Source: a virus | Taxonomy: Duplodnaviria > Caudoviricetes | DNA: 54,277 bases | Virus record (IMG/VR): IMGVR_UViG_3300028025_005704 | Span: 1-54,277 of that record | Strand: one strand, 5' to 3' | In this document: positions 620-16,700 of the stretch, piece by piece | How the letters are laid out: each line of letters opens with the position of its first letter | Position numbering within the stretch: position 1 is the stretch's first letter | Translations under genes and position numbers: made by a program | Notes under the pieces: generated by a model | What the model saw: the letters and a program-made list of their open reading frames with translations, nothing else | Told to the model about the DNA's origin: nothing | The model's database searches: none

Positions 620-673
620 TTTGTCCTTTTCTGTCTCTTTATAATCCGAGTGTATAGGGTTGGATTTGAGTTG

Positions 674-1879: not shown

Positions 1880-2220
1880 TCGTGTCTGTTGTAATGGCGT
1901 TGGCTGTTTATTATGACTTGGTTGTTTGATTGGTTGGTTGGTTGGTTGTTAGTTATCCAGGCAGTCAAGTATCAAACAACACTTGCTTGGGTGTTTAGTT
2001 GGTTGTTAGTTGGTTGATAAGTCTTTGATTAGTTGTCTTGTGTTTGGTTGTGTGTTTTGTATTTGGTTGGTTGTCTTGTGTTTGGTTGTGTGTTGGGTAC
2101 AAATCTAAAGCTGCCAAACAACTAACTAAAAAGCTTTTTTGGGCATCAAGTTTTGATAAGTAGTTAGTCAATAACAAGTTGTAAAAAGTTTGTATGACTT
2201 GTCTAGGTCTTGACTCAGTT
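1880..2220. repeat. G/T-rich low-complexity tract (TTGG/TTGT/TTAG units)
   Basis: Runs such as ttggttggttggttggttgttagtt and tgtgtttggttgtgtgtt; strong strand skew; no credible ORF. Confidence 0.8.
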
Positions 2221-2341
2221 GATCCAAACAATTCCCTAACGCTTCTAGGCGCTCCGGTTAGGCGATAACCAGGCTAAAGCCAAATGGTAAAGCAAAACCC
2301 CTAACCGCATTGGCTAGGGGCTTGCTTACCGCATTACCGCA

Positions 2342-2674
2342 TTACTTCTTAGGCAGTTCCAACTTGTCGTAAGTCTTGACTGATACCGTAGCGTTATACG
2401 CTTCGCTAAAAGACGCTTCTAGAGTCTTTAGGTCTGTATTACGGCGCTCCGCTTCTACAAGTTCGTAGACAAGTTCACCGCTCGAATCAAACGCAACGCG
2501 GGCATTACCTAACACGCTAATTAGTTCGGCACGCAATTCTGCTTCTTGCGCCGCAAGTTCTTTTTGGGTATCACGCAAGATACGCATAGTATCCGCAAGA
2601 GCGACAACCGCTTCATCTACAAATACAGCCGGGGTAGCAACTACAACTTCTGACTTTGACATTTTTGATTCCAT
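2342..2674 (-). CDS. Hypothetical phage protein (coiled coil)
   Basis: ORF between a TTGACA promoter element (2742-2747) and a hairpin terminator (about 2294-2322). Confidence 0.7.
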   Translation of the reverse strand: MESKMSKSEVVVATPAVFVDEAVVALADTMRILRDTQKELAAQEAELRAELISVLGNARVAFDSSGELVYELVEAERRNTDLKTLEASFSEAYNATVSVKTYDKLELPKK

Positions 2675-2864
2675 TCTTTTTGGTGATTCGTTTTTTGTTA
2701 TCGGTTGATAACATCATAATCAAAGCATAATTTTTAGAGCGTGTCAAATCGAAACCGCATCTTTTTTATAACAGTTTTATAACGGCAGATAACGCCATCA
2801 AAGCTGCCATCACCGCAAGCAAGCGAAAACCCCTGCCACAATAGGCAGGGGTCCGGTGAACCGC

Positions 2865-3173
2865 TTAGGCGCTTACAGACTCATTACAGAATTCGCAAGC
2901 CCAACCAGGTTCATCAACTTCATCTAAGCCACACTCCACGCATAGATTAGTCTGAACCCAATAGTCTGCTACAAAAAAGTCTTTTGCCCCATTCGGATAC
3001 GCTTCAGCGCAATCGCCACACAACCAAAACCAAGCGATCTCATTTGCCTTTTTAGGGTCAAAGGCAACTTCAGCTGCCAGTGAGTCATTGACTCCGATTA
3101 GGTCAATCGGGTCTCCATCAAAGGCGACACTACAGCCGTCGCAATTAGTTTCGCCGTATTTATTACTAGCCAT
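2865..3173 (-). CDS. Cys-rich hypothetical protein (CxxC pairs)
   Basis: CDGC, CGDC, CVEC, CEFC; TAATG coupling to the upstream ORF; terminator at 2826-2852. Confidence 0.65.
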   Translation of the reverse strand: MASNKYGETNCDGCSVAFDGDPIDLIGVNDSLAAEVAFDPKKANEIAWFWLCGDCAEAYPNGAKDFFVADYWVQTNLCVECGLDEVDEPGWACEFCNESVSA

Positions 3174-3337
3174 TAGATTCCCTCAACCTTCGAAATAATA
3201 AACATAAAACCTAGGCACAAGAGCAAATTACCTGCACCGAAAATAACTACAGCATTAGCAAAAGCTGCAGGTAAAGCAAACACGCCCACAAGCATTAGAG
3301 CGACAATTGCCATTGCGATTACGATTAGATTCTTCAT
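3173..3337 (-). CDS. Small membrane protein (54 aa, not in ORF track)
   Basis: MKNLIVIAMAIVALMLVGVFALPAAF...; GAAGGGG RBS; stop overlaps the next ATG. Confidence 0.65.
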   Translation of the reverse strand: MKNLIVIAMAIVALMLVGVFALPAAFANAVVIFGAGNLLLCLGFMFIISKVEGI

Positions 3338-3420
3338 TTTTTACCCCTTCGTTTTGGTTGCTTATGCAACACAAGAATTGTCCCATAACTTCTAACGAAT
3401 TGTCAAATCTATTTATGGGC

Positions 3421-3962
3421 GTGTTTTGCCAGGCGATCCGGGTAAACAACCAGGCTAGATCCGGGTCTAGCTGCTAACTTCTAACGAATAAGCCGCAAGC
3501 CGAGCTGCCTAACCAGGCTAGATCCAGGCTATTTGCCAGGCTAGATCCGGCTAGATCCGGCTAATAAGCTGCCTAGATCCGGGCTAGATCCGGGTAAAGC
3601 TGCCATCGAAGCTGCAGACTTCGAACGAATAAGCCGCTAACAACCAGGCTAGATCCGGGTTAGATCCGGCTAGATCTAAGAAGATAGCCAGGCTAGATCT
3701 AACGAATAAGCCGCTACTGATCCAGGCGATCCGGCTAACTTCTAACGAACAGCTGCTTAGATCTAACCTTGAGCTGCTAGATCAGCTGCTAGATCTAACG
3801 AAGATCTGGGCTAGATCCAGGCAGATCTCCGGGGCGATCCGGGTTAGATCCGGTCAACTTCTAACGAAGATCCGGGCTGGATCAAACCTAAAGCTGCTTA
3901 GATCGCCATCGAAGCTGCCACCGATCCGGGTTAGATCCGGCGAGCGCTGCCATAAGCCAGGC
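3421..3962. repeat. Non-coding mosaic array of short words (TAGATCCGG, CCAGGC, AGCTGC, AACTTCTAACGAA, AATAAGCCGC)
   Basis: By-eye count: about 26 GATC, 15 CCGG, 10 CCAGG and 10 AGCTGC in 540 bp; lies between a terminator (3968-3990) and the next promoter (about 3401). Confidence 0.9.
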
Positions 3963-4004
3963 AATAAAAAACCCCGCAACCAGGGCGGGGTCTTCTACTG
4001 TTGC

Positions 4005-4166
4005 TTAGTAGTTTTCGTTGCAATGCTCCAAGAGCGTTTCGTAAGTTGCTCCACTCTTGATTAGTTCCACAAGGTCTTCATCTTCCATTAGAAGATAAGC
4101 ATCTACGGTTGTCTCAGCCGCGAGGCGCATTAGTAGAAACTTAGGGCTAGTTAGAACATCTCCCAT
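4005..4166 (-). CDS. Small acidic hypothetical protein (53 aa, not in ORF track)
   Basis: MGDVLTSPKFLLMRLAAETTVDAYLLMEDEDLVELIKSGATYETLLEHCNENY*; GAAGGGA RBS; own promoter (TTGACA 4234-4239) and terminator. Confidence 0.65.
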   Translation of the reverse strand: MGDVLTSPKFLLMRLAAETTVDAYLLMEDEDLVELIKSGATYETLLEHCNENY

Positions 4167-4539
4167 TTTGCTATTCCCTTCATTCGTTTACCAGGCTGTC
4201 TGCCTAGTACTAAATTACCATTTTTTAGGTAATTGTCAAACACCTAACGCCTACGAATAATCTCCGAATAAAGTAAAGCTTGAGAGGCTAGGCCACCGAT
4301 AAGAATAGGCCACCATACAGACTGATACCCAACAGCAAAACCAAATAGCCAAATAAACCCTAGCCCAGCTGCCACACCGCGCCACAACACAACCAGGTCT
4401 CCGGTGTCTTGCTTATCCATTTTTATTTGCCTTTACATAGTTCCAATGAGCTGCGTCATAGAATAAACCACCCACCGAAAACACCCACTTAGACACTACG
4501 CCTAAAGCCTTGTACCAAAATAAATGCCACGCTCTCAAC

Positions 4540-4776
4540 TTAGTTCCTCTCTAAAAAGATTCGGTAAATCTCTTGATTCAGTCTTGTTAGGTTTCGTTCG
4601 GCTCTCTCTGATGAACCAACTAAATACATTCCCGCAAGTTGTTTTAGAGTTTCGTTGCGAGAGCATTCTGCCCAAATCGCCCCTTGGGTGTGAACAGAAT
4701 AATTATCCTTACCGCCCGCAAGTTTCATAACTTGGTCAAAAGCGAATTCGGCTCTGTGGTCTACATAAGTTTTCAT
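4540..4776 (-). CDS. Hypothetical phage protein
   Basis: AAAGGGAG RBS; cassette context. Confidence 0.65.
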   Translation of the reverse strand: MKTYVDHRAEFAFDQVMKLAGGKDNYSVHTQGAIWAECSRNETLKQLAGMYLVGSSERAERNLTRLNQEIYRIFLERN

Positions 4777-4858
4777 TTGTCTCCCTTTCGTTTTAGGTTT
4801 TCACCTAGGTTTAGGATACGCCCTAACCAAATAATAAGCAAGTGATTAGGGCGTGTCG

Positions 4859-5053
4859 CTATTTGCCTAGAATTGTTTTGATGGCGCGAATTGGATCGCC
4901 CACCAGGGTAGCGTCTTTACCGCCCCGATCTAGGTAAGTAGCGTGAGCCGGGATCATTAGATCCTTTAGATCGCCATCGGTAAGCATTCCGTCAGCTAAG
5001 CCTTGGCGAACATCTTCTGCCATCTGAATAATGATTGGGTCTTTAGTTAGCAT
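4859..5053 (-). CDS. Hypothetical phage protein
   Basis: Start re-assigned to MLTKDP after an AGAGGA RBS. Confidence 0.55.
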   Translation of the reverse strand: MLTKDPIIIQMAEDVRQGLADGMLTDGDLKDLMIPAHATYLDRGGKDATLVGDPIRAIKTILGK

Positions 5054-5129
5054 TTGTTTCCTCTCTGTTGTTTTCGATTGTTCCATAGATCATTGCCACA
5101 CGCAAGCGACACGCCTAGCCGGGGTAAAA

Positions 5130-5330
5130 GAAAACGCCACACAGAAAACGAAAAAAAACTGTGTGGCGTTTCTTTGGCGGTGTGTTCACGCCGTTGGCTA
5201 GGTCATTGGGGGAAATCTCTAGCCAAGTCTGTGAGCAGTTTCACAACTTACTCAGGTTGAGCGAAATTATTTTACCCGTCTAGTCGCTACCCCAATTCGG
5301 GCTTCGGGCGTTAGCCCTAAGTCTTGTTAT
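5130..5330 (-). ncRNA. Candidate structured RNA / 3' UTR (hairpins plus an H-type pseudoknot)
   Basis: 12-bp stem AACGCCACACAG/CTGTGTGGCGTT; stem TTGGCTAG/CTAGCCAA; minus-strand CAAC-CU-GAGUA-A-GUUG-UGAAAC-UGCUC pseudoknot at 5233-5259. Confidence 0.45.
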
Positions 5331-5334
5331 TTAG

Positions 5335-5526
5335 TTATGGCATTGCTCTGTCTATGTCTGCCTCAAAGCAACTGTCGCATTTAGTAAAAATGCTTTTGTC
5401 CGGGCTGTTGCCAAAGCCTCGAGAGGCTAGGTAATTGCCACCGTCAAAGCCACCAAAATCTGCGGTGTTGTCTGGTGTGAGTTCGCTCTCGCAATCATTA
5501 CAGACTTCTAACTTGTTATCTGGCAT
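5335..5526 (-). CDS. Small CxxC protein
   Basis: CNDC...CDSC; AAGGGGA RBS. Confidence 0.6.
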   Translation of the reverse strand: MPDNKLEVCNDCESELTPDNTADFGGFDGGNYLASRGFGNSPDKSIFTKCDSCFEADIDRAMP

Positions 5527-5650
5527 TAGTTCCCCTTACGGCGATAGCGTGGCTTAGAGGTAATCAAACCCTGCTGTCGCATTGCCCAAACTAAAAGCAC
5601 TACGCCACCAACTACTAGAGATACCCCTATCCCTAAAATAAATTCTGCCA

Positions 5651-5842
5651 TTATGCCACCACCTTATTAGCGATAGCAACGGCAGGGGCGAAACCTATCG
5701 CCCAACCTAGAGCAACTGAAACCCAAGCGTCAGCAAACAGGTCAGGAGTTCCGCCCAACACGATTAGCAATAAAGCGTAAAGCCCTAGCACGATTGGAGT
5801 TGTAGCAATAGCAAAGATGATTCTGCGAGTTGTAAAGTTCAT
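5651..5842 (-). CDS. Small membrane protein
   Basis: Two hydrophobic segments; start MNFTTRR after AAAGGGA; promoter TTGACA(5917-5922)-16-TATCCT. Confidence 0.6.
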   Translation of the reverse strand: MNFTTRRIIFAIATTPIVLGLYALLLIVLGGTPDLFADAWVSVALGWAIGFAPAVAIANKVVA

Positions 5843-5960
5843 TTGATTCCCTTTCGTTTTCGTTTCGTTTTCGTTTTGGTTTCCCAATAGTTCTAGGATA
5901 CACGCCTAGAAACTCTTGTCAAGTGTTTTCTGAAAAAAGTTTTTCGGCGTGTCGCCCAGG

Positions 5961-6143
5961 CTAAGCGTAAGTTTCCGCAAGCATACGATCATTGACAAAA
6001 CGCTCCGCATCCATCCAGGCAGTCTCGCCGGTGAACCGCGCAAGGATCTCGCCATTCTTTCTAACCTGAGCTGCAAAGCTGCTTGACCAAACTTCATAGA
6101 TCCCGCTGCCAATAATGAACTGTGTGTCTAGTGTTAGTTCCAT
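5961..6143 (-). CDS. Hypothetical phage protein
   Basis: GAAAGGGT RBS; cassette context. Confidence 0.6.
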   Translation of the reverse strand: MELTLDTQFIIGSGIYEVWSSSFAAQVRKNGEILARFTGETAWMDAERFVNDRMLAETYA

Positions 6144-6363
6144 TTTGTTTACCCTTTCTAATTGGTGATCTCACTCTAACCTGGATCTGGTCTAAAAGCA
6201 AGTAGATCTAGCTGCGATCTCAGCTGGAATCTAAAGATCGCCATCGAGGGCCGGGGTACGAAAAAAGGCACCAGTGGGGGACCGGTGCCTTTCTCGCGGA
6301 TAAGTGAACGGGATAATTCCCCTATCCATTGCCAGGGAGTGGTCTCAACCTAGCAAGATTAGT

Positions 6364-6705
6364 TTACGCCATAGACGCTCGCTTAGCAAACTCGGAATAG
6401 GTTACGCCTTCGATGGTATAGACGCCAGTGTCTGCGTCGACATAGACAGTCGGTGAGTTCACCCAGGCGTCGCTAACCTCTCCTGACGCGATTCCAAAAC
6501 CTAGCTCACCATCGTACGCGCCTAAGGTGTTTGCGAACTGCTGAAAAATTTGAGCTGCGAGATAACTAGCATCTCCAATTCGCCCAGTGCGGTCTAAAAC
6601 ATTACGGACTGCCTCCAGGTTTTCATCTCCTGACCAGTGCCCATAAAAAAGAATGGGTGCGAGAAACTCTTTACTCTCCACCTGAATGAATGAACGATTT
6701 CCCAT
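6364..6705 (-). CDS. Conserved-looking phage protein (MGNR...YGHWSG)
   Basis: Start re-assigned to MGNRSF; TAATG overlap with the upstream gene. Confidence 0.65.
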   Translation of the reverse strand: MGNRSFIQVESKEFLAPILFYGHWSGDENLEAVRNVLDRTGRIGDASYLAAQIFQQFANTLGAYDGELGFGIASGEVSDAWVNSPTVYVDADTGVYTIEGVTYSEFAKRASMA

Positions 6706-6908
6706 TACGCCACCTGAACCCATCGAACGGCGGTGCGTAGCAAGTGGTCGTAATCGCCGCTTGTACTCTCAGCGTAGTAAGCGTCGATTTCTTCCTTCGG
6801 AACGCCTGCATCTTTTAGTGCGCTAGCAACGCGTGCCATAATCGCGAACGCGTTTCCATCTTCGCCAACCAGGCGAACCTGAATCTCAGGATACTTTGTG
6901 TCTTCCAT
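6705..6908 (-). CDS. Conserved phage protein (DGNAF...GDYDHLL)
   Basis: Motif LVGEDGNAFAIM...SGDYDHLL, recurrent in phage hypotheticals; RBS and promoter upstream. Confidence 0.7.
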   Translation of the reverse strand: MEDTKYPEIQVRLVGEDGNAFAIMARVASALKDAGVPKEEIDAYYAESTSGDYDHLLRTAVRWVQVA

Positions 6909-6935
6909 TTTTTACCCCTTTCTAAAGGTACTTTG

Positions 6936-6964
6936 ATTGTATGCTATACCGCGATGCGTGTCAA
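6936..6964 (-). promoter_or_regulatory. SigA/sigma70-type early promoter
   Basis: TTGACA-N17-TACAAT; representative of similar elements at about 1115, 2742, 3401, 4234, 5917 and 16583. Confidence 0.8.
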
Positions 6965-7013
6965 GTTTATAAAAAGCTGGCGAGCTGCGATCCTGGAATC
7001 GATCGAGCTGCAA

Positions 7014-7457
7014 CTACTTAGCTGCCTGCCTCGCCAGAGAGCGCTTTAGCCCCTCCACGCGACTACACGTCCGGCAACGCTGTTCTATGTAAGCCACCGA
7101 CTCGCCATTAGGGCCTGGTCGTTTCGTTTGTTTTACATAAAAGTTTTCTGGCGTGCGCTTATGCCCATGAGGGCAAATCTCTGAAATGTTTTCATAGTGA
7201 TAGGGGTTGATGCAAGCACGATTGCCACAGGCATTACGCAGCTTGTCGTGCTTAGACAGTTCCGGGCGAAACAGCCCCCAGGTGTATCTAGGCACGCTAA
7301 CCCAAATCCTTTTAGTCTGAGTAGTTTTCATAATTGGCGTAAGTTTTGAGCCTTTGAGTTTGAGGCTGCCAATCCAAGTTAGGCACTCGCTGTCCGGCTC
7401 TATAACTGTGCGCTCCATAGCGTAAGAGTTCAGTCTTGCGTAAATAGTTTCTTTCAT
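7014..7457 (-). CDS. HNH endonuclease-like Zn protein, possibly degenerate
   Basis: CLTWxGS, CGNRACINPYH, CPHGH..TPEN, CRTC as in actinophage HNH proteins; the usual His before the first Cys reads Asn. Confidence 0.6.
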   Translation of the reverse strand: MKETIYARLNSYAMERTVIEPDSECLTWIGSLKLKGSKLTPIMKTTQTKRIWVSVPRYTWGLFRPELSKHDKLRNACGNRACINPYHYENISEICPHGHKRTPENFYVKQTKRPGPNGESVAYIEQRCRTCSRVEGLKRSLARQAAK

Positions 7458-7579
7458 GCCCCCATTTTACAAAGGCCATGCGACATTTTAGGATAAGCAA
7501 CCATAACTTTTTAGTAACGCATTTGATCGATCCGGGTAAGCGAAAACCCCGCCACAAAGGCGGGGTCTCGCTTCGGTCA

Positions 7580-7810
7580 TTACTTCTGGCTTGGCATCTC
7601 TTTGTGTGCCATGTCCATTAGGTAGTTGATTGCCGACAGAGTTTTTTCCAACTTGTCCCAGTCTTTGTTTGTAGCAAGTTGTTCTGCATACTCTGACAGG
7701 ATTGCGCTGGCACTTACTAATGGCTCTACTGAGTCAAGAAACTCGGTTGATTTTGCGATTGCATCAAAGTCCGCAATCAGGTTGTCTAGCGTTTTGGTCA
7801 TGTGTCCCAT
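7580..7810 (-). CDS. Hypothetical helical protein
   Basis: Cassette with promoter (about 7865) and terminator (7543-7567). Confidence 0.6.
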   Translation of the reverse strand: MGHMTKTLDNLIADFDAIAKSTEFLDSVEPLVSASAILSEYAEQLATNKDWDKLEKTLSAINYLMDMAHKEMPSQK

Positions 7811-7992
7811 TCCGTTGGATACTTTCCAACTAGGTCTAAACTAACATACCCTACTGACATTTTGCGTCAAGTTTGATAACTAATTTATAACAAGATTTCC
7901 ATGTGTTACCAGCTGCAGGATCAAGGGCCAGCTGATCCCTGGATAAGGCGAAACGCGCCAGGCACCGGCCTGACGCGCTTCGAGCTGCAAGA

Positions 7993-8193
7993 TTATGACA
8001 CCCGGTCCAATTCTTTTGAACCCCAGGCATCACCACCCTTGGCCACCCTGATTGCATTTTCTAACGCGTTAATGTTGCCACGAATAAACTCCGGGCTTAG
8101 TTCGATGTCGCGAGACTCCCAGTACAGTTTTAGATTTTCGAGTTTCGCGAGTAACTCTTTACCCTCTTTAGTCTTCATCGTACTCTTCTTCAT
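7993..8193 (-). CDS. Hypothetical protein
   Basis: Overlap-coupled to the upstream ORF. Confidence 0.45.
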   Translation of the reverse strand: MKKSTMKTKEGKELLAKLENLKLYWESRDIELSPEFIRGNINALENAIRVAKGGDAWGSKELDRVS

Positions 8194-8485
8194 CTTCAGT
8201 ACACCACGCGTCTAGATGGTGATTAATAATGATTTCGCGAGCGGGAGCCCAAGGCTCGCCGCGCCACTGGATTTGGAATGGATTGCCATCGCGGTCTAGG
8301 CCATCAGTTGGCAAGTCAATTTTCCGGTCTAGGTCATCTTCCCAGTAAGCGTCGATTGCTTCGATACATGCCTGCACCATTGACACTGGCACTGGCGGAT
8401 AGTGATTGCCCTGCAGGTGCCAGGCAATTTGTTGCTCCATTGACACGCCACTTGTAGCGATGTCGATTGCTGTCATTCTTCCCAT
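8168..8485 (-). CDS. Conserved-looking phage protein (WHLxxNHYPPVP)
   Basis: GAAAGGGG RBS; acidic tail. Confidence 0.65.
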   Translation of the reverse strand: MGRMTAIDIATSGVSMEQQIAWHLQGNHYPPVPVSMVQACIEAIDAYWEDDLDRKIDLPTDGLDRDGNPFQIQWRGEPWAPAREIIINHHLDAWCTEDEEEYDED

Positions 8486-8522
8486 TTTTTATCCCCTTTC
8501 AGTTGGATAGTTTGATTATAGG

Positions 8523-8729
8523 CTACTTGCGCGTGTTTTGTAAATTCCGGTTGCGCAATTCTTTCATAATGTTTTTTAGCGCGCGAGAGTCTGACGGCGT
8601 GCTTGCCGAAAAGAAAAACGCGCCATCACTGCGTGTCCACTTTAGGTGTCCACCCTTAGTAAGACTGATAACCCAGCCCTGCTTCTCAGCAAGGCGAATT
8701 ATGTTTTTTAGTTCACTTCTTAGTGCCAT
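8523..8729 (-). CDS. HicA-like (dsRBD-fold) mRNA interferase-type protein
   Basis: AEKQGW...TKGGHLKW...ASTPSDSRALKN pattern typical of actinophage HicA-like proteins; AAAGGA RBS. Confidence 0.6.
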   Translation of the reverse strand: MALRSELKNIIRLAEKQGWVISLTKGGHLKWTRSDGAFFFSASTPSDSRALKNIMKELRNRNLQNTRK

Positions 8730-9564: not shown

Positions 9565-10038
9565 TTACCAACTTGACTGATACTCAAAGTCGAAGTCTGC
9601 GAATTTCGGATTGCTCAAAATTTTCCCAAGCATTTCCGAAGTCTGCTTTACGCTTGCGTGATACCACTCATCGTAATCAGTACCACCAAAGAAAAAACCA
9701 TCTTGAGTTGGTAGAAGTTCGTGAGCCTTAGTTGCGTTGCCCAGTACCTCATCGCAAACATCTTTCAACTCTTGAAGTTTCTCACGCTCAACATAAGCCC
9801 TTTGACATTCATCAACGCCACCTTGAACATTGTCCACAAACCAGTTGTGGATAGCATTAGCCTTACGCCAATACCCAACAGTAAGTTTCACTTCAGCACT
9901 AGGGCTTTCGCCATCAAAGTCTGACTTGTTCAAACCACTAACCGCAAGAATGTCTGCGTACTTCTTTTGCTCATCTTGCGATGAGTGTGAATAACCTGAA
10001 ACATACTTCCTAGCAGATAGGTACATGTCTAATCCCAT
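9565..10038 (-). CDS. Conserved phage protein (MGLDMY...YWRKANAIHNWF...GFFFG...YQSSW)
   Basis: Recurrent phage hypothetical family motifs; start re-assigned after GAAAGGGA. Confidence 0.75.
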   Translation of the reverse strand: MGLDMYLSARKYVSGYSHSSQDEQKKYADILAVSGLNKSDFDGESPSAEVKLTVGYWRKANAIHNWFVDNVQGGVDECQRAYVEREKLQELKDVCDEVLGNATKAHELLPTQDGFFFGGTDYDEWYHASVKQTSEMLGKILSNPKFADFDFEYQSSW

Positions 10039-10115
10039 TTTTTTATCCCTTTCTAAATTGTGGATTTCCCCACAAGTAAATTGTGCCATAGTTTCAACGA
10101 AACCGCAAGCGTGTC

Positions 10116-10442
10116 TTATCTAGTTTTCCAGCATTCCTCACAGACAAAGATCCCTGAGCCCAGCCCCTCAACCTCTGTCATCTCCTCCTGCTCAGCGCTG
10201 ACTCCACAAGTAGAGCATTTGACAGAGTTGTCATAGAGGAGCTCAGTGCTCATAGACTCCCAAAGTTCACCGCGGTATACCAGGTTGCTAATGTCCTCAA
10301 ACGCAAGATCCTTACAGGTACTTAGAATCTCCTCCTCGGTCTTAGCTGCTTGCTCCCCGTCTTCATCTGTAAACATTTCTGCGTGCTCGGTGTCCGGGTA
10401 GAACTCGAATACCACCCCAACCTTTATGACTCGGCTACTCAT
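10116..10442 (-). CDS. Hypothetical protein with C-terminal Zn ribbon
   Basis: CSTC...CEEC; start re-assigned to MSSRV. Confidence 0.5.
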   Translation of the reverse strand: MSSRVIKVGVVFEFYPDTEHAEMFTDEDGEQAAKTEEEILSTCKDLAFEDISNLVYRGELWESMSTELLYDNSVKCSTCGVSAEQEEMTEVEGLGSGIFVCEECWKTR

Positions 10443-10577
10443 CGTCCAGGTCCTCATCCCACAGAACCTCATTACAGTCATTACACTCCAGCGCGACATT
10501 GTGAATAACCTCGCCGCGCCCATAGGTAACCACAGTGATCGCGTGCCCTTTGTGCTCTAGCATTTTCTCGATGTCCA

Positions 10578-10838
10578 TTAGTTGTCCTTACTGGCCTGGC
10601 AGGCCTCACAAGTCATAGCATCGTTCAGTTCGTCCGTATCAAAGTCATCCAAACAAACAGCGCAAGTAGATACCTCATCTTGCTCGTGCTCGACCCAGTG
10701 CGAATACTGGTCAATGCTTGGGGCTTTTGTGCTCCGTAAATAAAACTTGACGATACATTCATCGCAACAATCGGCAGGCCGACTGTTCTCATTAGCGCCG
10801 CAAGCCTCACACGAATAAGAAAACTTGTTATTCATCAT
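10578..10838 (-). CDS. Cys-rich hypothetical protein
   Basis: Four CxxC pairs; overlaps the upstream stop. Confidence 0.5.
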   Translation of the reverse strand: MMNNKFSYSCEACGANENSRPADCCDECIVKFYLRSTKAPSIDQYSHWVEHEQDEVSTCAVCLDDFDTDELNDAMTCEACQASKDN

Positions 10839-11184
10839 CCTCGCCGTCCTCGTCCTCATCCTCGATGAAAACGATTTCCAGGCGCGCGATGCGCTTGCCC
10901 CAGCCCTCGGTTTCCTCGTAGTGAGCATAGACAGGATACAAACCATCACCGTATCCCGAACTTGAAACTACACCCGCGCCTGCGTGCCCCGCTTTGAAAT
11001 TGAGCTGCCCCGCTTGCCCCTCGGCGAGAGTTGTTGAACACGCGCCGCCGTATGAATAGTGCCCGATTTCAGCCTCGCCGAAACCCTCTTTACCCCAGTC
11101 GTTCAAGTACCCAGGGTCGGTGATTAGAATCTGTCCTGAATCAACCGCAATGAATCCGATTTGCTTTGTGCTTGTAATTACCAC
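10828..11184 (-). CDS. DUF4241-like protein
   Basis: VDSGQ..I.DP and SSGYGDG.YPV motifs. Confidence 0.6.
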   Translation of the reverse strand: MVITSTKQIGFIAVDSGQILITDPGYLNDWGKEGFGEAEIGHYSYGGACSTTLAEGQAGQLNFKAGHAGAGVVSSSGYGDGLYPVYAHYEETEGWGKRIARLEIVFIEDEDEDGEDDE

Positions 11185-11215
11185 TTGGTATCCCCTTTCT
11201 CGAGATACCTCAACC

Positions 11216-11515
11216 TTACCCTAGGTCGGCGTATTCGTCAATAACCTCGTATAACGATTCTGGCGTGTCCGGGATGTCCAAGCCAGCTAACCGCATGCCC
11301 GCGCGAATAACAATGTCAGCTGTCTCCATACCTAAACCCCTAGCTGCGAGTGATTCCAGTAGATCTGAAGAGATCTCCTTCTGACCGCGTTCAACCTCTG
11401 ACAGATACCCCAGGGCTAGCGTAGATTTCCCAGCCACCTCCCGCATTGGCATCTTCTGACTTAGGCGCTCTTCGCGCAAGATCTCCCCTAATGCTTCCCG
11501 ATACAGCATGATCAC
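11216..11515 (-). CDS. XRE-family HTH regulator, ClgR-like
   Basis: REALGEILREER...REVA....LALGYLSEVERGQKEISSDLL closely follows the actinobacterial ClgR consensus. Confidence 0.8.
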   Translation of the reverse strand: MIMLYREALGEILREERLSQKMPMREVAGKSTLALGYLSEVERGQKEISSDLLESLAARGLGMETADIVIRAGMRLAGLDIPDTPESLYEVIDEYADLG

Positions 11516-11585
11516 TCCTTCATTGTCTTAGGGCTAGTGTATGGGCAAAATGCTCGCCGTGTCAATCGACACGCCTCCGGCTAAA

Positions 11586-12425
11586 CTACGCCACTGGGAA
11601 GAGCCGTTGGTTGGTGTCCATGTCCTTGACGAATACAGAGTTTTCATCCGCTTGGGTAATGTTCTCGCCCAAATCAAGAACCACGCCAGCCATCTTCTCA
11701 CCAGCAAGTTCCCACGCCTTTTCAGCGTTCGCCGCTTTCACATACAAAGTCTGCTCGATAACCACCGCAAAGGTTTGCTCTGGTCTTGGGCAATCCTCAA
11801 ACCAATACTCTTGGTCGTCGTCGCCGTCTTGGCAATTACAGTTCTCTTCCCTATCAAGAGCCACATAGTCTGCGTGGCTTTGTGGAATGTCCCACTCCCT
11901 AGTAATCGAGAACTCGCCACTGATACCACTAGCCTCGATACCCCAGCCTTGCTCTTCTTCGCATGAGAAGTCGAACTCCAGTTCTGGGTGCTGTTCCACC
12001 ATTGCGATAAACGCCCCTTCAGCCACGCTCCAAGGTGTGGAAAAACTGTAGTGAAGATACTGCTCTTTTTCTTGGCTGTAATCTTGAAGTGCTACATCAC
12101 TAGCGTCCCACTTACAGCCCCACTCACGAACATTCCAGTCATACCAGCCATCACTTGTCGCCTTCATGTCATGAGCCAACTTCTGATTCAAGTCCCAAGT
12201 TTCGTAGCCCTCTGGCTTATAGTCGCTCGCTCCGAAATAAAGAGACTTGTCTTCTGGCTCCTTGAAGTTCCAAAACGCAAGTTCTGACGAATCACTCTCT
12301 GAATACTCCAGCGTGCCATCATCTGAAATACCATTTGGCGATAACTTGCTCGCCTTATCACGAAACGCAATCAGTGCCTCACGCTCGCCTTTGACATTCA
12401 TGTTGTTGTAAACCCAGTTTGGCAT
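11586..12425 (-). CDS. DUF1281 / YubB ferredoxin-like domain protein
   Basis: MPNW..N, WYDWN..EWGCKWD and FSTPWS motifs. Confidence 0.7.
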   Translation of the reverse strand: MPNWVYNNMNVKGEREALIAFRDKASKLSPNGISDDGTLEYSESDSSELAFWNFKEPEDKSLYFGASDYKPEGYETWDLNQKLAHDMKATSDGWYDWNVREWGCKWDASDVALQDYSQEKEQYLHYSFSTPWSVAEGAFIAMVEQHPELEFDFSCEEEQGWGIEASGISGEFSITREWDIPQSHADYVALDREENCNCQDGDDDQEYWFEDCPRPEQTFAVVIEQTLYVKAANAEKAWELAGEKMAGVVLDLGENITQADENSVFVKDMDTNQRLFPVA

Positions 12426-12482
12426 TTGCCTATCCCCTTTCAGTTGGATACCACAAGCGTAGCATAGTTTGACGAAAATACC

Positions 12483-12722
12483 CTAATCTTCGTCATACTT
12501 TTCTACGCCACGAACAATGTTCATTTCCAGCTGCCCCTCAATTGCCAGGCAGTTATCGCATAGGTTATAACCAAGGTAGTTATAGTTCCAGTGATTAACC
12601 ATGCTCGCGCAATCCACGCATTGGGCCAGTTCCCCGGTCGCTCCGCAAACATGGATAACATCATCATTTTCAACCCCGTAGAACATCTCCACGAAGGTAT
12701 CTTCATTCAGCTCTTCATTCAT
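12483..12722 (-). CDS. Small CxxC protein
   Basis: CVDC...CDNC; leaderless-type -10 element upstream. Confidence 0.5.
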   Translation of the reverse strand: MNEELNEDTFVEMFYGVENDDVIHVCGATGELAQCVDCASMVNHWNYNYLGYNLCDNCLAIEGQLEMNIVRGVEKYDED

Positions 12723-12984
12723 GTCATCAGGTTACCCGACAGCTGCGACATTTTCCGTTATTGATTTTGGATCAATTTCCAGGAGGGACCCAACTTCCCA
12801 CGATCGTGAGACACCCGTTCGTTCGAAGTTCTGCGTAATCTCCACATTGCTCAATGGGATCCGTTCACCCGGGCAAGGCGAAACCCCCTAGGTTGGGGGA
12901 ACCTAAGGGGTCTCTATCCGTTGGGAGAGCGGGTAGTACTTTTAGAAAGGGGTGCTCAATCCCAACGGAATCCTACGCACGCCG

Positions 12985-14766
12985 TTAGGCACTCACTCTC
13001 GCAAGTGCCTCGGACGCTGACCGACCAATCTCCAGAGCAATTTGCTCAACATCAAGTCCGTCAAGGTGAACTCCGCTCGCCGTTCCGCTCATAATCGCTT
13101 TCGCACCCACGCCATTACACGCCTTTGGGGTAATGAACAGAACAGCCACGCCGTTTTGCTCGCAAGACTTCATTACATTCTTGGCGTGTTCCGTTTCGTT
13201 CCCTGTGTAGTTTCCGTCCGAAACAATTACTAACATACGCACGCCGTCTCCGTAAGTGAGATTCAGCGAGCCGTCCAATGCCATGAACGCCTTGTGAAAC
13301 ATCTCCGTTCCGTCTGGTGCTGACCAGACCGAAACCTTGTCCAACTTCTGACCGACTTTGAGAGTTGGGAAAACATCAGAGCCGTAGTAAACCATAGCGG
13401 TCTTGGCTTGGATTCTGCGTCCAGCCTCTGACATTACCCACGCCGTAGTCGCCATAGATTCCATAGCCGAACCCATAGACCCACTAATGTCCACCATGAT
13501 TCCAAGTGAAAGTGTTGGGTCGTCTGTGTGCTTGCGTGTCTTTTGTCTCCACGCTGGATTCAGGTCTCGCACGCCCTTTGACTTTAGTGCCTCGTTCTGA
13601 ACTAGAACTCGTGCCTTTAGTTTTCCAGCAGGTGCGTGAGACTTGATAACAGTTTCCGAACGCTCACGATACTTTGCCTTTTCCAACATCTGACCAATCT
13701 TGACAGCAGACGCACGCTCGTTCGAAGTTGGATTGCGTTGTTCCATGAGAGACGAACGAGACGAAGAACCCTCTGACCCAATGGACTTCGACATAACTTC
13801 GTCAGATTCTTTTTTGGATTCGTTCTTCTTCTTGCTCTCGCTTTGTTTCTTGGAAACTTCTTCTTTCCAATCTTCGCCCATTTCTTGGTCTGCCAAATCC
13901 ATAGCGACTGAAACGCTTGTGCCACTTGCGTCCTCGCCAAGTGCCTCTAGCAAATCTTTCACGAACTCTGGAAGTGAACCAGCACCACCATTGTTCTTTC
14001 CCTCTGGGTCTTTGGTGTCAAGAATGTTCACCCACTTGCGAGCGATTTCTAATCCAGCCAATGTCGCACCATTACGAAGTTGTTGGAACTCACACCACAA
14101 CGCACGAAGTTCGTCAAAAAGTTCTTCGCCCAAAATCTCCAACGCCTTGTCGTAAGTTGTCGCAACATCTGACAACTTCACAACGCCAGCGTCCACACGA
14201 GCGAGAGCAAGTCCAGCCAAGTGAGCCATGACACGAACTTCGCTAACTTTGGTCAAGCGTTCTTCATCAAGGTCTCCCAACGCAAGACCCAAAGCAGACG
14301 CACGCAAGAACAACTGATTCTGTGGGATTTCGATTACGCCCATGCGTTCGATACGAGATTCTTCTAACAAGAAAAAAGCCTCTACAACATCTTTGTCTTT
14401 TTCAGACGCAAGTAAATCTTTATCCCACTTGTCTGAAAAGCGAGCGTGAAGTGCCTCGTGATAAATCACGCCAACTGGCTCTGCGAACTCATACTGATTG
14501 GAACGCTTACGCAAGTCGCCAACCATTTCTGGAGTTGTCGCTTTACCAAAAGCACCCTCTAGGTTGATTTCGATTTCAGCAGTATCGCCAATGAAACAAG
14601 CGATTGCTTGACCCATGCCAGCGTCCTCGCCAGCGTAAACAGCCAAGTCAGTTCGACCTGACCATGCGTTAGCAAGTTCGCCAATGTGTGAACAAGTTGG
14701 TAGCCACTCGCTAGGTGTCGCACTCTTGCGACTTGCTAGACGAGATTCTGGAACATAGTGAGACAT
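12985..14766 (-). CDS. vWA-domain protein with N-terminal HExxH domain (CobT/NorD-like AAA partner)
   Basis: HEALH; MIDAS DISGSM; C-terminal VIVSDG; adjacent AAA+ gene. Confidence 0.85.
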   Translation of the reverse strand: MSHYVPESRLASRKSATPSEWLPTCSHIGELANAWSGRTDLAVYAGEDAGMGQAIACFIGDTAEIEINLEGAFGKATTPEMVGDLRKRSNQYEFAEPVGVIYHEALHARFSDKWDKDLLASEKDKDVVEAFFLLEESRIERMGVIEIPQNQLFLRASALGLALGDLDEERLTKVSEVRVMAHLAGLALARVDAGVVKLSDVATTYDKALEILGEELFDELRALWCEFQQLRNGATLAGLEIARKWVNILDTKDPEGKNNGGAGSLPEFVKDLLEALGEDASGTSVSVAMDLADQEMGEDWKEEVSKKQSESKKKNESKKESDEVMSKSIGSEGSSSRSSLMEQRNPTSNERASAVKIGQMLEKAKYRERSETVIKSHAPAGKLKARVLVQNEALKSKGVRDLNPAWRQKTRKHTDDPTLSLGIMVDISGSMGSAMESMATTAWVMSEAGRRIQAKTAMVYYGSDVFPTLKVGQKLDKVSVWSAPDGTEMFHKAFMALDGSLNLTYGDGVRMLVIVSDGNYTGNETEHAKNVMKSCEQNGVAVLFITPKACNGVGAKAIMSGTASGVHLDGLDVEQIALEIGRSASEALARVSA

Positions 14767-14964
14767 TTTTTAGCCCTTTCTAAAAGCGTAAGACGATTGT
14801 AGCATGGCAAATCAAAATCACGCAAGCCCCAAAAGGATCCTTTTTTTCGTGTCCAGCTGCGGACCTCTCACGATCGTGAGAAAAGCTTTCGCCCCCTGGT
14901 CCGGGCAAAAGAAAAAGGCACGAGACCGAAGTCTCGCACCTTTCCTTTTTAGTAGGACGAACCA

Positions 14965-15987
14965 CTAAATCTTTGCTGGGCGACATTCCTCACCGAAAAC
15001 TCGTGTGAATACATCTGCCACAACTGGTCTGTCAATCTCTGGGGCAGACGCAAGCAAGTTGGCGATTGCGAACTTCGTTCCAAAGATTCCAACCAAGTCT
15101 CGGAACGCAAGAAGTTCACGCATTTGTGGAGACCACATTGTTTCGCCATTCGCTTGTTTCTTTGCCAAGTTTTGAGCAACTGAAACAGCAGTCGCTGGAA
15201 CTCCAAGTTTCTTCGCCAAGTTCCAATCAGTTGTCATTTCGACTTGGACTGTGAAACGAGAAAGCAACGCCTCTGAAAGTCGAACTCCTGGGGCATTTGG
15301 ATTGGTCGCACCAATTACGAAAAATCCCTCTTTCGCTTTTACAGTTCCACGCTCTGGATTCTGTGTGATTGTGATTTCTTTTCTTCCGTCCATGAGACCA
15401 TAAACAGCAGAAAGAACTTTCGGGTCAATCAGACCAATCTCGTCAATGAGCAAAACTTTTCCTTGCTCGGCAGATTTGATAAGCGAGCCGTCCACCCATT
15501 CGAACGCACCACTTGGGGTCTGAACATAACCACCAATGAAGTCTGAAAGTTCTGTGTCGCCAGAACCAAGAACTGTATAAAGTTCGTCTGGGAACGCACC
15601 CTCAACCAAAGCAGTTTTTCCAGTTCCTGGGGAACCATAAAGAAGAACATACTGATTCGCCTCACGAGCCTTGCGAAGAACCTCAATGTCTGTGTGTTCT
15701 CCCCAAGTGCGTGAGTAGTAATCCTGACCATTAGGACGAGCGTATTTTTCTACGCCCTCTAGTGCGGAAACATTTACCACTTTGTTCGCCTTTACTTTTG
15801 GAATAGCAGTTCCAACTTTAGCACGCACCTTTGCCTTAGCAGTTTCTGGCATGAGCGAAGTGAGACCAGCAGGAACACTCGCTGGGTCAGCGTGCTGGAC
15901 AGCGACTCCATAAACAAGTGAAGTCAAGTCTGCGAACAAGTCGTCAATCGAAAGTTCGTCCATTGTTTTGTCTGAATAAATTGTCAT
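14965..15987 (-). CDS. MoxR/CbbQ/NirQ-family AAA+ ATPase
   Basis: Walker A GSPGTGKT, WVDGSL, Walker B LLIDEI, ATNP, ALLSRF. Confidence 0.9.
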   Translation of the reverse strand: MTIYSDKTMDELSIDDLFADLTSLVYGVAVQHADPASVPAGLTSLMPETAKAKVRAKVGTAIPKVKANKVVNVSALEGVEKYARPNGQDYYSRTWGEHTDIEVLRKAREANQYVLLYGSPGTGKTALVEGAFPDELYTVLGSGDTELSDFIGGYVQTPSGAFEWVDGSLIKSAEQGKVLLIDEIGLIDPKVLSAVYGLMDGRKEITITQNPERGTVKAKEGFFVIGATNPNAPGVRLSEALLSRFTVQVEMTTDWNLAKKLGVPATAVSVAQNLAKKQANGETMWSPQMRELLAFRDLVGIFGTKFAIANLLASAPEIDRPVVADVFTRVFGEECRPAKI

Positions 15988-16015
15988 TTTGATTCGTCCT
16001 TAGTTTTCGTTTTGC

Positions 16016-16330
16016 TTACGCAAGTTTTTCTGGAAAGCCCAATGAGACACGAGCCTTTTGGATTCTACGCAAAGCACTCGCTGGTGCTTTCCACTTTGAT
16101 ACATCTGTGAAGTCCACATCAGTAAGTTCGAACACGATTGGGCGTGAACGCAATTCCTCAATCGCACCCCACTTCATTTGACGCTTTAGGTGTTCTTCGA
16201 CTTTGCCACTCATGTTGATTGCTTTATCTTGGGCAGACATTGTTTCGACTTCTTTGTCTGGTCGAATAAAGTTCACGTGCCATTGTGAGCGTGGAGAGTG
16301 TTTTGAGATTGAGCGATAGGTAGTCGCCAT
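16016..16330 (-). CDS. Hypothetical protein (possibly the C-terminal part of a frameshifted gene)
   Basis: ORF track; joins the upstream ORF in frame if the A6 run is read as A5. Confidence 0.55.
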   Translation of the reverse strand: MATTYRSISKHSPRSQWHVNFIRPDKEVETMSAQDKAINMSGKVEEHLKRQMKWGAIEELRSRPIVFELTDVDFTDVSKWKAPASALRRIQKARVSLGFPEKLA

Positions 16331-16340
16331 AGCAACATCT

Positions 16341-16514
16341 TCACCCTTTTCGTTTTTTACCCTCTGGGGTAATCAGAAACTGGAAAGTGCTACTACCATG
16401 TGGGAACTCCAAATAGATTCCCATGCCAGCGACTACTGGCTTGTTTGATTCAGCAGAAGAAATAGCGTCAGCCACTTCTCCAGTAAGAGTGCCAAAAGCA
16501 CTTAGTGGATTCAT
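16341..16514 (-). CDS. Hypothetical protein (possibly the N-terminal part of a frameshifted gene)
   Basis: Start MNPLS after AAAGGA; first gene after a strong promoter. Confidence 0.55.
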   Translation of the reverse strand: MNPLSAFGTLTGEVADAISSAESNKPVVAGMGIYLEFPHGSSTFQFLITPEGKKRKG

Positions 16515-16559
16515 GTTTCGTCCTTTGTTCGTCCTGTGTGAACTTTTGCTCACAAGTCG

Positions 16560-16588
16560 AACTTACAGGGTTTCGTGTCAAGTGTCAA
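16560..16588 (-). promoter_or_regulatory. Promoter of the AAA/vWA block
   Basis: TTGACA(16583-16588)-N17-TAAGTT; a second TTGACA in tandem; A-tracts upstream. Confidence 0.7.
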
Positions 16589-16700
16589 ATCTATTTACGA
16601 AGTTTTTTGAAAAAGTTTTTCGTGGGTCTCCATACTGACTTCGCACGAATTCTGATCCTGATTCGTTGGAAGTACACCAAGCAGCTGGTGCCTGGTTGGC

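Follow-up and report, generated by a model that had tools for sequence, protein, structure and literature searches.

The 54,277-bp contig IMGVR_UViG_3300028025_005704, an entire IMG/VR virus record (Caudoviricetes) that is referred to here as the window, was analysed for the distribution of short palindromes of the kind targeted by restriction enzymes. A 15.8-kb block of small early genes with sharp borders was found to be strongly purged of such words, while the remaining ~38 kb of the window is not purged. We regard it as probable, on balance, that two layers are superimposed in this early zone, namely a restriction-avoiding region that is the first to be exposed to the host and lineage-specific control elements in the spacers between its genes. 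The window is a genome fragment; complete relatives span 130–161 kb. The original prediction, made by eye from the sequence, had held that restriction-type words are purged from the genes at 2100–16700 yet packed into the spacers as a dedicated anti-restriction architecture. The purge that it described is real, but the borders are located at ~1750 and ~17550, and the packing of the spacers proved to be confined to few words and few lineages.

Depletion of palindromes in the early zone

The window contains a total of 386 ACGT, TTAA and ATAT words. Only 5 of these occurrences fall between positions 1750 and 17555, where ~156 would be expected at the outside density, and the other 381 are spread over 38.5 kb. 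Likewise, GTNAC was found 6 times in the zone against 48 expected and TTNAA 24 times against 83, and 23 of the 64 6-bp palindromes are missing from the zone as compared to 2 from the late part. When 136 4-mer classes were ranked by Markov-corrected depletion, palindromes occupied ranks 0–9 in the zone while their ranks were scattered outside it.

Synonymous-codon shuffles that preserve both protein and codon usage (300 per gene group) were used as the null model at the level of genes. The four genes at 12985–16514 contain 39 4-bp palindromes against 158.8 expected (z −11.5), with 10 out of the 16 words absent altogether, and the 31 genes at 2342–12722 contain 286 against 422.6 (z −9.2). The corresponding z values for three late gene groups were −1.0, −2.1 and −2.6. 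As the original prediction had claimed, GATC, AGCT, CCGG, GGCC, GCGC, TGCA and GCWGC do not occur at 12985–14766 or at 14965–16640, and CCWGG is found there only at Pro-Gly codons (two sites, 15287 and 15626, both CCA-GGA). These segments include the gene for a MoxR-type AAA+ ATPase and that for its partner, which is probably VWA/CobT-like (the AAA and VWA genes hereafter; Table 1).

The left edge of the zone lies inside a non-coding region of 769 bp and the right edge lies at or just past one of 313 bp. A conserved element within the former, and the zone edge with it, are found at the homologous place in the complete relative G001 (131004–131021), and the zone edge of G001 carries the same motif as the 313-bp region. 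All called genes from ~27 kb down to 2.3 kb are on the minus strand. TTGACA-type promoters and strong ribosome-binding sites are found all along the zone, and the ribosome-binding motif GAAAGGG is present in 10 copies within it and in none outside. Orphans are frequent among the zone proteins, as are strongly acidic ones.

The purge in related phages

A total of 68 related IMG/VR loci were found via the AAA+ ATPase gene and classified by the number of palindromes over 8 kb from this gene onward, relative to that expected from base composition. This ratio was under 0.35 in 20 loci and 0.35–0.6 in 29, while 19 loci were without depletion. In 21 of the 61 loci with usable upstream DNA, the value was under half of that found upstream. 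The step is 100–200 bp wide and is situated 0.8–1.8 kb upstream of the ATPase gene. In L057, 13 of the 16 4-bp palindromes are present at 0–1 copies in 12 kb and only CTAG, TATA and AATT are kept. ACGT, AGCT, ATAT, GATC, GTAC and TTAA are absent from 13 kb of L002, and AATT, AGCT, ATAT, GGCC, GTAC and TTAA are absent from L008. Relatives are also without the five-base words GGWCC, CCWGG, GANTC, GTSAC and GCWGC and the Type IIS words GTCTC and GAGTC, and in some of them GATC and CCGG are missing from the upstream DNA too. Across lineages, orthologues of the AAA and VWA genes together hold from 9 to 290 palindromes; there are 9 in L062 and 30 in the window as compared to 128–181 in unpurged relatives of like G+C content.

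In the complete genome of G001 (153,711 bp) there is a single purged block at ~131–145 kb, corresponding to ~9% of the genome, and 40–80 palindromes/kb are found elsewhere. The large terminase gene of G001 lies 4.8 kb beyond the downstream edge of its zone, and a like layout is seen in G004, that is in two of three complete relatives. When 16 relatives were split into coding and non-coding DNA, the purged words were missing from both. A purge that is specific to palindromes, regional, and common to relatives that each have their own word set bears the signature of selection by Type II restriction. The original prediction is upheld in this respect, and host restriction enzymes are the most likely agent.

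A regional, word-specific purge, with word sets that vary by lineage as gene content does, would also be produced if the phage's own early nucleases had short palindromic targets and destroyed host DNA, such that any DNA present at the same time had to lack these targets. A like idea has been proposed for the A1 protein of T5 (bioRxiv 10.1101/866236), and an HNH endonuclease gene does lie within the zone. We nevertheless consider such self-avoidance unlikely, as scans of zone proteins revealed no nuclease of the restriction type, the HNH gene is missing from L001, the closest relative of the window, and the late region would still require protection. Furthermore, up to 13 of 16 4-bp words along with many 5-bp words are purged in a single phage, which are more specificities than would plausibly be encoded in one early region.

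Orientation of asymmetric sites

Several asymmetric words are held in one orientation within the zone. GCAGC and its complement GCTGC occur at a ratio of 37:2 as compared to 33:31 in late genes of the same strand, CGCAG and CTGCG at 23:1 as compared to 15:31, and CCGGA at 31:0. A Markov model gave an expectation of 14.4 for CTGCG on the sense strand of the zone, where it is found once. In L015/16 the bias is inverted (0:18), as expected if only uniform orientation matters, which is the case for enzymes requiring pairs of inverted sites. Base-composition skew was rejected as the cause for GCAGC and CGCAG since these have the same base content as their complements; it accounts in part for the bias of G-rich words such as GGTGG. 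GCAGCT is ~2.7-fold enriched per kb in the zone over the rest of the contig, an excess for which evasion alone does not account.

Word content and anatomy of the early spacers

The spacer set consisted of the 3338 bp left non-coding by the gene calls between 2164 and 16700. Part of the cocktail of restriction-type words that had been described for these spacers was recovered, the enriched words being GATC, CTAG and AGCT (as oriented GCAGCT) and, in a non-coding array at 3338–4004 only, CCGG. GATC was found 47 times against 9.4 expected (z +12), and 21 times against 6.4 with the array left out. GGCC, TGCA and GCGC were at or under expectation, and ACGT, TTAA and ATAT were each absent from all 3338 bp.

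The predicted contrast between coding and spacer DNA was real for these few words. The density of six words in array-free spacers (58 in 2671 bp, or 21.7/kb) was about that of the late genome (20.5/kb), as compared to 9.5/kb in zone genes. The ten blocks listed in the original prediction hold 67/kb of the words but had been picked by eye, and one of them (4275–4455) falls in probable small membrane-protein open reading frames (ORFs) at 4244–4420 and 4413–4538. For all 4-bp palindromes the density was 43.8/kb in early spacers and 53–54/kb in the late part, on account of which a general packing of spacers with palindromes was rejected. An unbiased scan (at least 6 words per 80 bp, array removed) returned 6 clusters in the zone against 0.43 expected, while words were not clustered in the late region (12 against 10.2). 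Three of the zone clusters are located at spacers and three are whole small genes (4859–5053, 5961–6143 and 16701–16997), the first of which has 5 GATC, in line with the weaker purging originally noted for some small genes.

On the minus strand, a spacer starts with the stop codon and a G+C-rich hairpin, followed by TTTTCTTTTACC, CCSGG and a stretch with GATC and (C)GCAGCT. Further on there is often GACACGC, a TTGACA-type promoter, the ribosome-binding site TTAGAAAGGGGAT and the ATG of the next gene. Of the spacers, 7 have GACACGC, which the late 37 kb lacks entirely. GATC and GCAGCT are paired (GATC-N0-6-GCAGCT or GCAGCT-N0-6-GATC) 13 times in the zone, always in non-coding DNA, and once elsewhere; the reverse orientation of the pair is not found in the zone. 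GCAGCT on the sense strand makes up 34 of the 52 AGCT in the zone as compared to 31 of 250 outside. The spacer words were also considered as cores of longer palindromes or hairpins and this was rejected, extension past 4 bp being at chance level (0.26–0.33 per step). Exceptions are found at 12799–12808, 14831–14844 and 14866–14881, the latter two in the spacer between the AAA and VWA genes, where GGATCC, CAGCTGC, CGATCG, AAGCTT, CCTGG and CCGGG all lie within 14833–14906 as originally described. In the array, 26 GATC are found within 500 bp, and the length of the array differs between the metagenome runs in which window DNA was detected.

Elements of this kind are restricted to some lineages. 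Word blocks occur in the window and in 6 of the 68 loci, which represent four lineages (L001, L004/5, L015/16 and L063). The 8-bp palindrome GATCGATC is found 14 times in L004, about once per spacer and between terminator and promoter, and 28 times across 60 relatives against 3–5 expected. In G001, GGTATTTATTTTTTCTG is present in 4 spacers. GATC arrays with a spacing of ~11 or ~23 bp are found in four lineages (window, L001, L015 and L063), while L010 has no such array and no GATC in the zone or a further 12 kb. Furthermore, no zone cluster of the six words was found in 13 loci (L002, L003, L006–L013, L057, L059 and L062). The spacer between the AAA and VWA genes of these 13 loci is a promoter region of 43–133 bp without terminator or block, in which the promoter is set within an inverted repeat, GTGTCAA...TTGACAC. 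Among the 17 such spacers shown, a terminator with a block is found in those of the window, L001 and L004/5 only. Packing of the spacers is accordingly not part of the conserved design of the family. As the blocks consist of lineage-specific repeats, we read them as putative cis-elements, probably protein-binding sites, and their restriction-type look would result from their palindromic cores.

Two further arrangements were observed in relatives. Following the AAA gene of L008–L010, L059 and L062, the early promoter lies within the inverted repeat GGAGGTGTCAA...N20...TTGACACCTCC, the right arm of which is the −35 element. In L057, a non-coding array at 19184–19650 is free of palindromes and has a 10-bp period (AAAATCTGTA 12 times, CCTAAAACG 9 times); like the GATC array of the window it lies inside the purged zone, ~9 kb downstream of the AAA gene.

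Contrast between genes and spacers

Between the window and L001, divergence at four-fold sites amounts to 26% in the AAA and VWA genes. Simulation of neutral synonymous drift in these genes gave an expectation of 6.7 GATC and 6.5 AGCT, while none was seen in either phage (P≤0.001 each). The purge as a relic of past restriction was rejected on this basis for GATC and AGCT in the two genes. The spacer common to window and L001 between these genes retains 2 GATC and 2 AGCT despite changed flanks. Over ten spacers, word positions were identical between the two phages in 167 of 190 cases (88%) as compared to 1075 of 1337 other positions (80%). L004/5 show the same contrast, with no GATC or AGCT in the AAA and VWA genes and a dense set of words in a spacer that cannot be aligned to that of the window. 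The words are selected against in genes while tolerated or kept in spacers, and the paradox raised by the original prediction stands, GATC and AGCT being barred from the AAA and VWA genes by ongoing selection and kept in the spacer that adjoins them.

Possible reasons for this contrast are that methylation or a bound protein protects the spacer sites, or that the harm done in genes comes from protein binding that would block transcription and not from cutting. That spacer cuts are survivable through error-tolerant repair, as was originally suggested, is made less likely by the fact that most relatives have clean spacers, by contig depths that show no second copy of the zone and by experiments with T5.

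The latter idea is part of a wider proposal in which the phage would use its spacer sites on purpose, as decoys or sacrificial cut points, such that the cassettes stay functional and loss is tolerated or repaired. The contrast is indeed real and actively kept in the window, L001 and L004/5, it recurs in L004 with a spacer of different sequence, and every cassette has its own promoter and terminator. Tandem GATCGATC, in excess among the 60 relatives, is the expected product of fill-in and re-ligation at a cut GATC. On the other hand, the 13 loci that have no word cluster are strongly or moderately purged, so that decoys are not the strategy of the family, and the purged words are missing from coding and non-coding DNA alike in the 16 relatives that were split. 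The words are specific, oriented repeats, such as the single GATCGATC per spacer in L004, and not random cocktails, and ACGT, TTAA and ATAT are never permitted in the spacers. To our knowledge, decoy or sacrificial restriction sites have been described in no phage family. A cut in single-copy DNA breaks the genome, and per-contig depths in the runs X1 and X2 do not indicate that the zone is present twice. T5 becomes sensitive through sites inside the DNA that enters first (PMC10644984). Decoys are in our estimate quite improbable, and use of the spacers as sacrificial or methyltransferase-loading devices was not borne out.

Cassette gain and loss was likewise examined between the window and L001. 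By our reading, 16 of 17 alignment ends fall at gene borders or spacers, and L001 is without the genes 7014–7457, 7580–7810 and 7993–8178. Cassette differences do thus end where the original prediction placed them, but nothing shows that cutting is the cause. The first of these genes encodes the HNH endonuclease and contains ACGT (7067), GGCC, CCGG, GCGC and TGCA. Since it is unpurged and has no counterpart in L001, it looks like a recent homing-type insertion.

Such observations would also fit an origin of the word-rich patches as younger DNA, with terminators, spacers and small genes imported from unpurged genomes and not yet purged. Three of the six clusters are whole small genes, the HNH gene is both unpurged and recent, the cassette content of window and L001 differs with ends at gene borders, and the terminator and block between the AAA and VWA genes are an insertion relative to most relatives. 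That block, however, is older than the split between window and L001, which differ at 26% of four-fold sites, and its GATC and AGCT have persisted without any being gained by the genes on either side. The local density of words reaches up to 3 times the level of the late genome and the motifs are oriented, phased and repeated. We hold this explanation to be improbable to much the same degree as decoys.

Interpretation of the early zone

The analysis demonstrates the purge, the borders of the zone and its conservation among relatives, and establishes that the spacer elements are repeats and where they are placed, while the order of entry, the agent of selection and the binding of a protein are inferred. 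In the two-layer reading, the block at 1750–17550 would be the early host-takeover region, which meets host restriction enzymes before any counter-measure of the phage acts. Selection would thereby leave almost no short Type II targets in the genes or in the spacers, and would force CGCAG, GCAGC and CCGGA into a single orientation in which they escape enzymes needing two inverted sites. The rest of the genome would keep its sites because it enters, or is attacked, only once protection is in place. A single block with sharp edges requires a physical or temporal discontinuity, and given the position of the terminase gene in G001 the zone would adjoin the likely start of packaging. The second layer would consist of the repeated non-coding elements that some lineages carry between a terminator and the next early promoter, in the window phased GATC, oriented GCAGCT and terminator-linked CCSGG. 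They are most likely bound by a protein, particular to the lineage, through which early transcription is controlled or its units organised. A palindromic core is what one would expect of a site for a dimeric protein, and relatives have different sequences in the corresponding position.

Several observations weigh against this reading. Of the 68 related loci, 19 are without a purge, and the terminase gene of the complete relative G003 does not adjoin the zone. No homologue of A1, A2, dmp or a named anti-restriction protein was found among the scanned zone proteins. As three of six clusters are genes, part of the pattern is a patchy, cassette-wise relaxation, and the blocks of L015 hold six different words, which is more than one binding protein would read. 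Spacer sites should moreover endanger the phage equally if the enzymes cut, and a function as binding sites alone leaves their safety unexplained. Finally, contigs run through both edges of the zone; all four metagenome runs in which window DNA was found consist of contigs assembled from mixed populations, from which neither termini nor true depth can be read. A long terminal repeat was considered, but the four runs show no step in depth, and per-contig depths in X1 and X2 are without a two-fold step at either edge, which weakens this candidate without settling it as the contigs are assembled. The contig ends of the 68 relatives gave no clue to a physical end, there being no common end position.

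Base modification that shields virion DNA everywhere but in the early zone would provide another reason why only the zone had to lose its sites. The contig does encode the thymidylate synthase ThyX, a carbamoyltransferase, several 2OG-Fe(II) oxygenases and a methyltransferase-like protein. Homologues of the latter carry the JGI name DNA (cytosine-5)-methyltransferase 1, while searches of Pfam, NCBIfam and PDB gave no hit for it and hence no specificity. The L001 and L004 contigs carry its gene, which three complete and four partial relatives lack, a link to block-bearing relatives that is confounded with relatedness; two of the three complete relatives have a purged zone all the same. An action of the candidate genes on DNA is putative, and we know of no mechanism that would leave a single 16-kb block unmodified. 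Regional modification is very unlikely in our view.

A more far-reaching reading, which we put forward as speculative and rather unlikely, combines an ordered, T5-like delivery or exposure of the genome with neutralisation of essentially all Type II restriction from a palindrome-free zone of 13–16 kb and with spacer arrays that would sense or exploit methylation or enzyme binding. It concerns the whole of what is a widespread family of freshwater and groundwater phages with genomes of ~130–160 kb. The effector would be a conserved zone gene, such as the MoxR AAA+/VWA pair close to the upstream end of the zone or one for an acidic protein resembling a DNA mimic. Restriction-type words would, in some sub-lineages, be allowed nowhere but in the untranscribed gaps that separate early cassettes, and the arrays might for example time the shut-off of early genes or protect the entering end.

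Features of the zone and the window

The coordinates of features are collected in Table 1. The VWA assignment of the 593-amino-acid (aa) protein is a probable one; Pfam VWA_CoxE was matched with an E-value of 0.026 only, which misses the cut-off, and the protein is 43% identical to a protein of phage DSL-LC01 annotated as a cobalamin biosynthesis protein. A 178-aa protein of L001 matches the window gene at 16016–16553 in two frames and the window (16344–16357) has one extra base at 16353 relative to contigs of all four runs, which indicates that a conserved gene is split here, either by an assembly error or by a real frameshift. The HTH_3 protein is a candidate binder of the spacer elements.

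Table 1. Positions of the early zone and of features discussed in the text.
Feature	Position	Strand	Remarks
Non-coding downstream-edge region	1573..2341	minus	769 bp; repeats at ~1900–2100; conserved single-copy element 1697–1716
Purged early zone	1750..17550	minus	~38 small, mostly orphan genes with own promoters, strong ribosome-binding sites and terminators
Non-coding array	3338..4004	minus	26 GATC at multiples of ~11 bp; CCGGATCTAG units, GATCTA(A)GCAGCT units, TTCGTTAGAAGTT
Probable 58-aa membrane-protein ORF	4244..4420	minus	Called spacer in the original prediction
Spacer	6144..6363	minus	Terminator, CCCCGGCC, then 5 GATC and 2 AGCT; aligned to L001
Spacer	6909..7013	minus	TGCAGCTCGATC...GATCGCAGCT...AGCT directly after HNH gene, then promoter
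HNH endonuclease gene	7014..7457	minus	phrog_826 2.6e-11; not purged
Spacer	7458..7579	minus	Terminator, then CCGGATCGATC
Spacer	7811..7992	minus	Terminator stem with GCGC, GGCC, CCGG; then GATCAGCTGGCC, GATCCTGCAGCT, promoter
Spacer	9255..9427	minus	Terminator, GCGCAGCTGAAGGATC, AGCT, GACACGC, promoter
HTH_3 (Cro/CI-type) DNA-binding protein	11216..11509	minus	Pfam HTH_3 2e-05; PHROG transcriptional regulator
Spacer	12723..12984	minus	Terminator, CCCGGG, GGATCC, CACGATCGTG, GATC, CGCAGCTG
593-aa AAA partner, probably VWA/CobT-like ("vWA gene" of the original prediction)	12985..14766	minus	Fully purged, 0 words
AAA-VWA spacer	14767..14964	minus	Terminator, CCGG, AAGCTT, 16-bp palindrome TCTCACGATCGTGAGA, GCAGCTG, 14-bp palindrome AAAAGGATCCTTTT, promoter, ribosome-binding site
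MoxR-type AAA+ ATPase gene	14965..15987	minus	Pfam AAA_5 2.7e-19; near upstream end of zone; conserved; fully purged, 0 of seven words
Conserved gene upstream of AAA gene, ~178 aa	16016..16553	minus	Split by one-base difference near 16353
Spacer	16515..16700	minus	AGCT and GATC upstream of TTGACA promoter; without terminator
Non-coding upstream-edge region	16998..17310	minus	313 bp; inverted copies of AACTTCTAACGAA and ACGGCGTGC hairpins
Methyltransferase-like gene, outside zone	46207..46950	minus	phrog_1008 6e-43

Comparison of 30 zone proteins, which did not include some eight very short ORFs, with Pfam and/or PHROGs gave no homologue of T5 A1, A2 or dmp, of Ocr or ArdA, or of any other named anti-restriction protein. 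A 279-aa protein at 11586–12425 (minus strand) has an isoelectric point (pI) of 4.1 and a net charge of −38, and more than 15 further zone proteins have a pI of ~4.1–4.3. These acidic proteins, which matched no family except PHROGs of unknown function, are possible DNA mimics by their composition.

The motif TTCGTTAGAAGTT (complement AACTTCTAACGAA; 3377–3406, 9290–9330, 16998–17310 and the array 3338–4004) lies between the −35 and −10 elements of some early promoters. Several copies are found in the GATC array and inverted copies at the upstream edge of the zone, the motif is also present at the edge in G001, and it looks like an operator. Where the early region ends, a stretch of ~200 bp (~1900–2100) consists of (A)ACCAACC-type repeats that are C/A-rich and nearly free of G on the sense strand, a composition like that of a Rho-utilisation site. 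Past the downstream edge, a 185-aa protein at 62–619 (minus strand) has a helix-turn-helix that resembles sigma-70 region 4. It is 75% identical to a G001 protein located between the zone edge and the large terminase gene and could be a late regulator or a small terminase.

In the late part, AGCT is in excess within genes (z +5.5 at 16.7–26.3 kb). The ThyX gene adjoins a NodU/CmcH-type carbamoyltransferase gene at 49379–51547 (minus strand), and five 2OG-Fe(II) oxygenase-like paralogues (18830–20180, 39498–40178, 47795–48397 and 52058–52693) have a conserved DNA stretch in common (repeat family D3). Together with the methyltransferase-like gene these could form a putative DNA-modification module. 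A serine recombinase/invertase gene (37786–38466, minus strand, phrog_95 1e-45) is present in a phage that otherwise looks lytic.

No near-identical phage record was found for the window. Its nearest named kin by protein similarity are Actinomycetia phage DSL-LC01 and large Microbacterium and Gordonia phages. DSL-LC01 derives from a lake metagenome and Actinomycetia are its predicted host (PMC10611076). Window DNA is present in four subsurface and lake-water metagenome runs from three studies, at a level of at least 0.69 of sampled words. In run X1, per-contig depth along window positions 1–20000 drops from ~47–62 (900–10500) to 13–18 (12100–19000), which suggests co-existing strains with a common left half of the zone.

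Comparison with known systems

Restriction pressure is already known to act mainly on first-injected DNA, from experiments with T5-like phages and T7-like coliphage relatives. For T5-like phages (T5, BF23), only sites that lie in the first-step-transfer repeat lead to restriction (PMC10644984); those in other parts of the genome do no harm, being protected once the pre-early genes act (PMC10644984, bioRxiv 10.1101/866236). According to the same two sources, the first-step-transfer DNA is a discrete 8–10% of a genome of more than 100 kb, encodes small host-takeover genes and has large untranslated repeats at its border and inside, with a T5 HNH gene inserted among them. How T5 protects its remaining genome is described as still unsolved (PMC10644984). 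The zone of the window family resembles this DNA in its share of the genome (~9% in G001) and, as a sequence footprint, in that restriction targets are tolerated in bulk and excluded from one block. The window zone has non-coding repeat regions of 769, 667 and 313 bp, two of them at its edges (1573–2341 and 16998–17310) with motifs common to G001, along with an HNH insertion. The T5 block is a long direct terminal repeat of which each genome has two copies, and the untranslated repeat at its inner border is an injection stop signal; a like role of the window repeats would be conjectural. The zone differs from T5 in that no A1, A2 or dmp homologues were found among the scanned zone proteins and contig depths do not point to a long terminal repeat. 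The phage family and its probable host group are unrelated, the nearest named kin being actinophages, and nearly all 4-bp palindromes are purged instead of a few 6-bp sites. Entry in two steps would be a parallel drawn from the footprint.

In the T7-like Murciavirus, Type I restriction was effective only when the motif was in the early-injected part, and its authors propose that selection by restriction-modification is concentrated on the first-injected segment (PMC12455610). The genes upstream of the window zone are oriented as the zone genes, as in a T7-type map. The window phage genome is, however, ~4 times larger, its signature is against Type II palindromes, and no phage RNA polymerase or Ocr homologue was seen within the 54-kb window. 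T7-type leading regions also have early promoters for the host polymerase at the entering end and an early anti-restriction protein. The one-way orientation of asymmetric sites in the zone is, as a sequence footprint, akin to the escape of T7 from the Type III enzyme EcoP15I (Kruger et al. 1995, as cited in PMC10644984).

Promoter-early/stem-loop (PeSL) cassettes of T4-type phages are small early ORFs that are each flanked by a promoter and a stem-loop and the content of which varies among close relatives. The small early ORFs of the window are similarly bracketed, and gain and loss relative to L001 takes place at such elements. The spacers of the window differ in that they carry additional repeated words and phased arrays, and mobility of the cassettes would be putative. 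Phased clusters of GATC bind proteins in a methylation-dependent manner at oriC (SeqA) and at P1 pac. The 26 GATC of the window at multiples of ~11 bp, and like arrays in three other lineages, resemble these clusters. Binding and methylation of the array are putative, the host is probably not a gamma-proteobacterium and the sole methyltransferase-like gene seen in the window is named as a cytosine-5 type.

Within the limited coverage of our literature search, which is no proof of absence, we found no account of a purge of 4-bp palindromes that is confined to one region and runs through a whole phage family. If the two-layer reading is true, sequence alone would reveal the first-entering DNA, the sites at which entry pauses and the restriction specificities that each lineage has met, and the conserved early genes would be a short list of candidates for a general anti-restriction function. 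As compared to the systems above, the early zone takes a known principle to a new extreme: a conserved, sharply bounded region free of restriction sites in a widespread family of large environmental phages. The footprint that is seen in these uncultured phages is natural and very strong, with sharp edges, up to ~10-fold depletion of 4-bp palindromes and word lists that are particular to each lineage.

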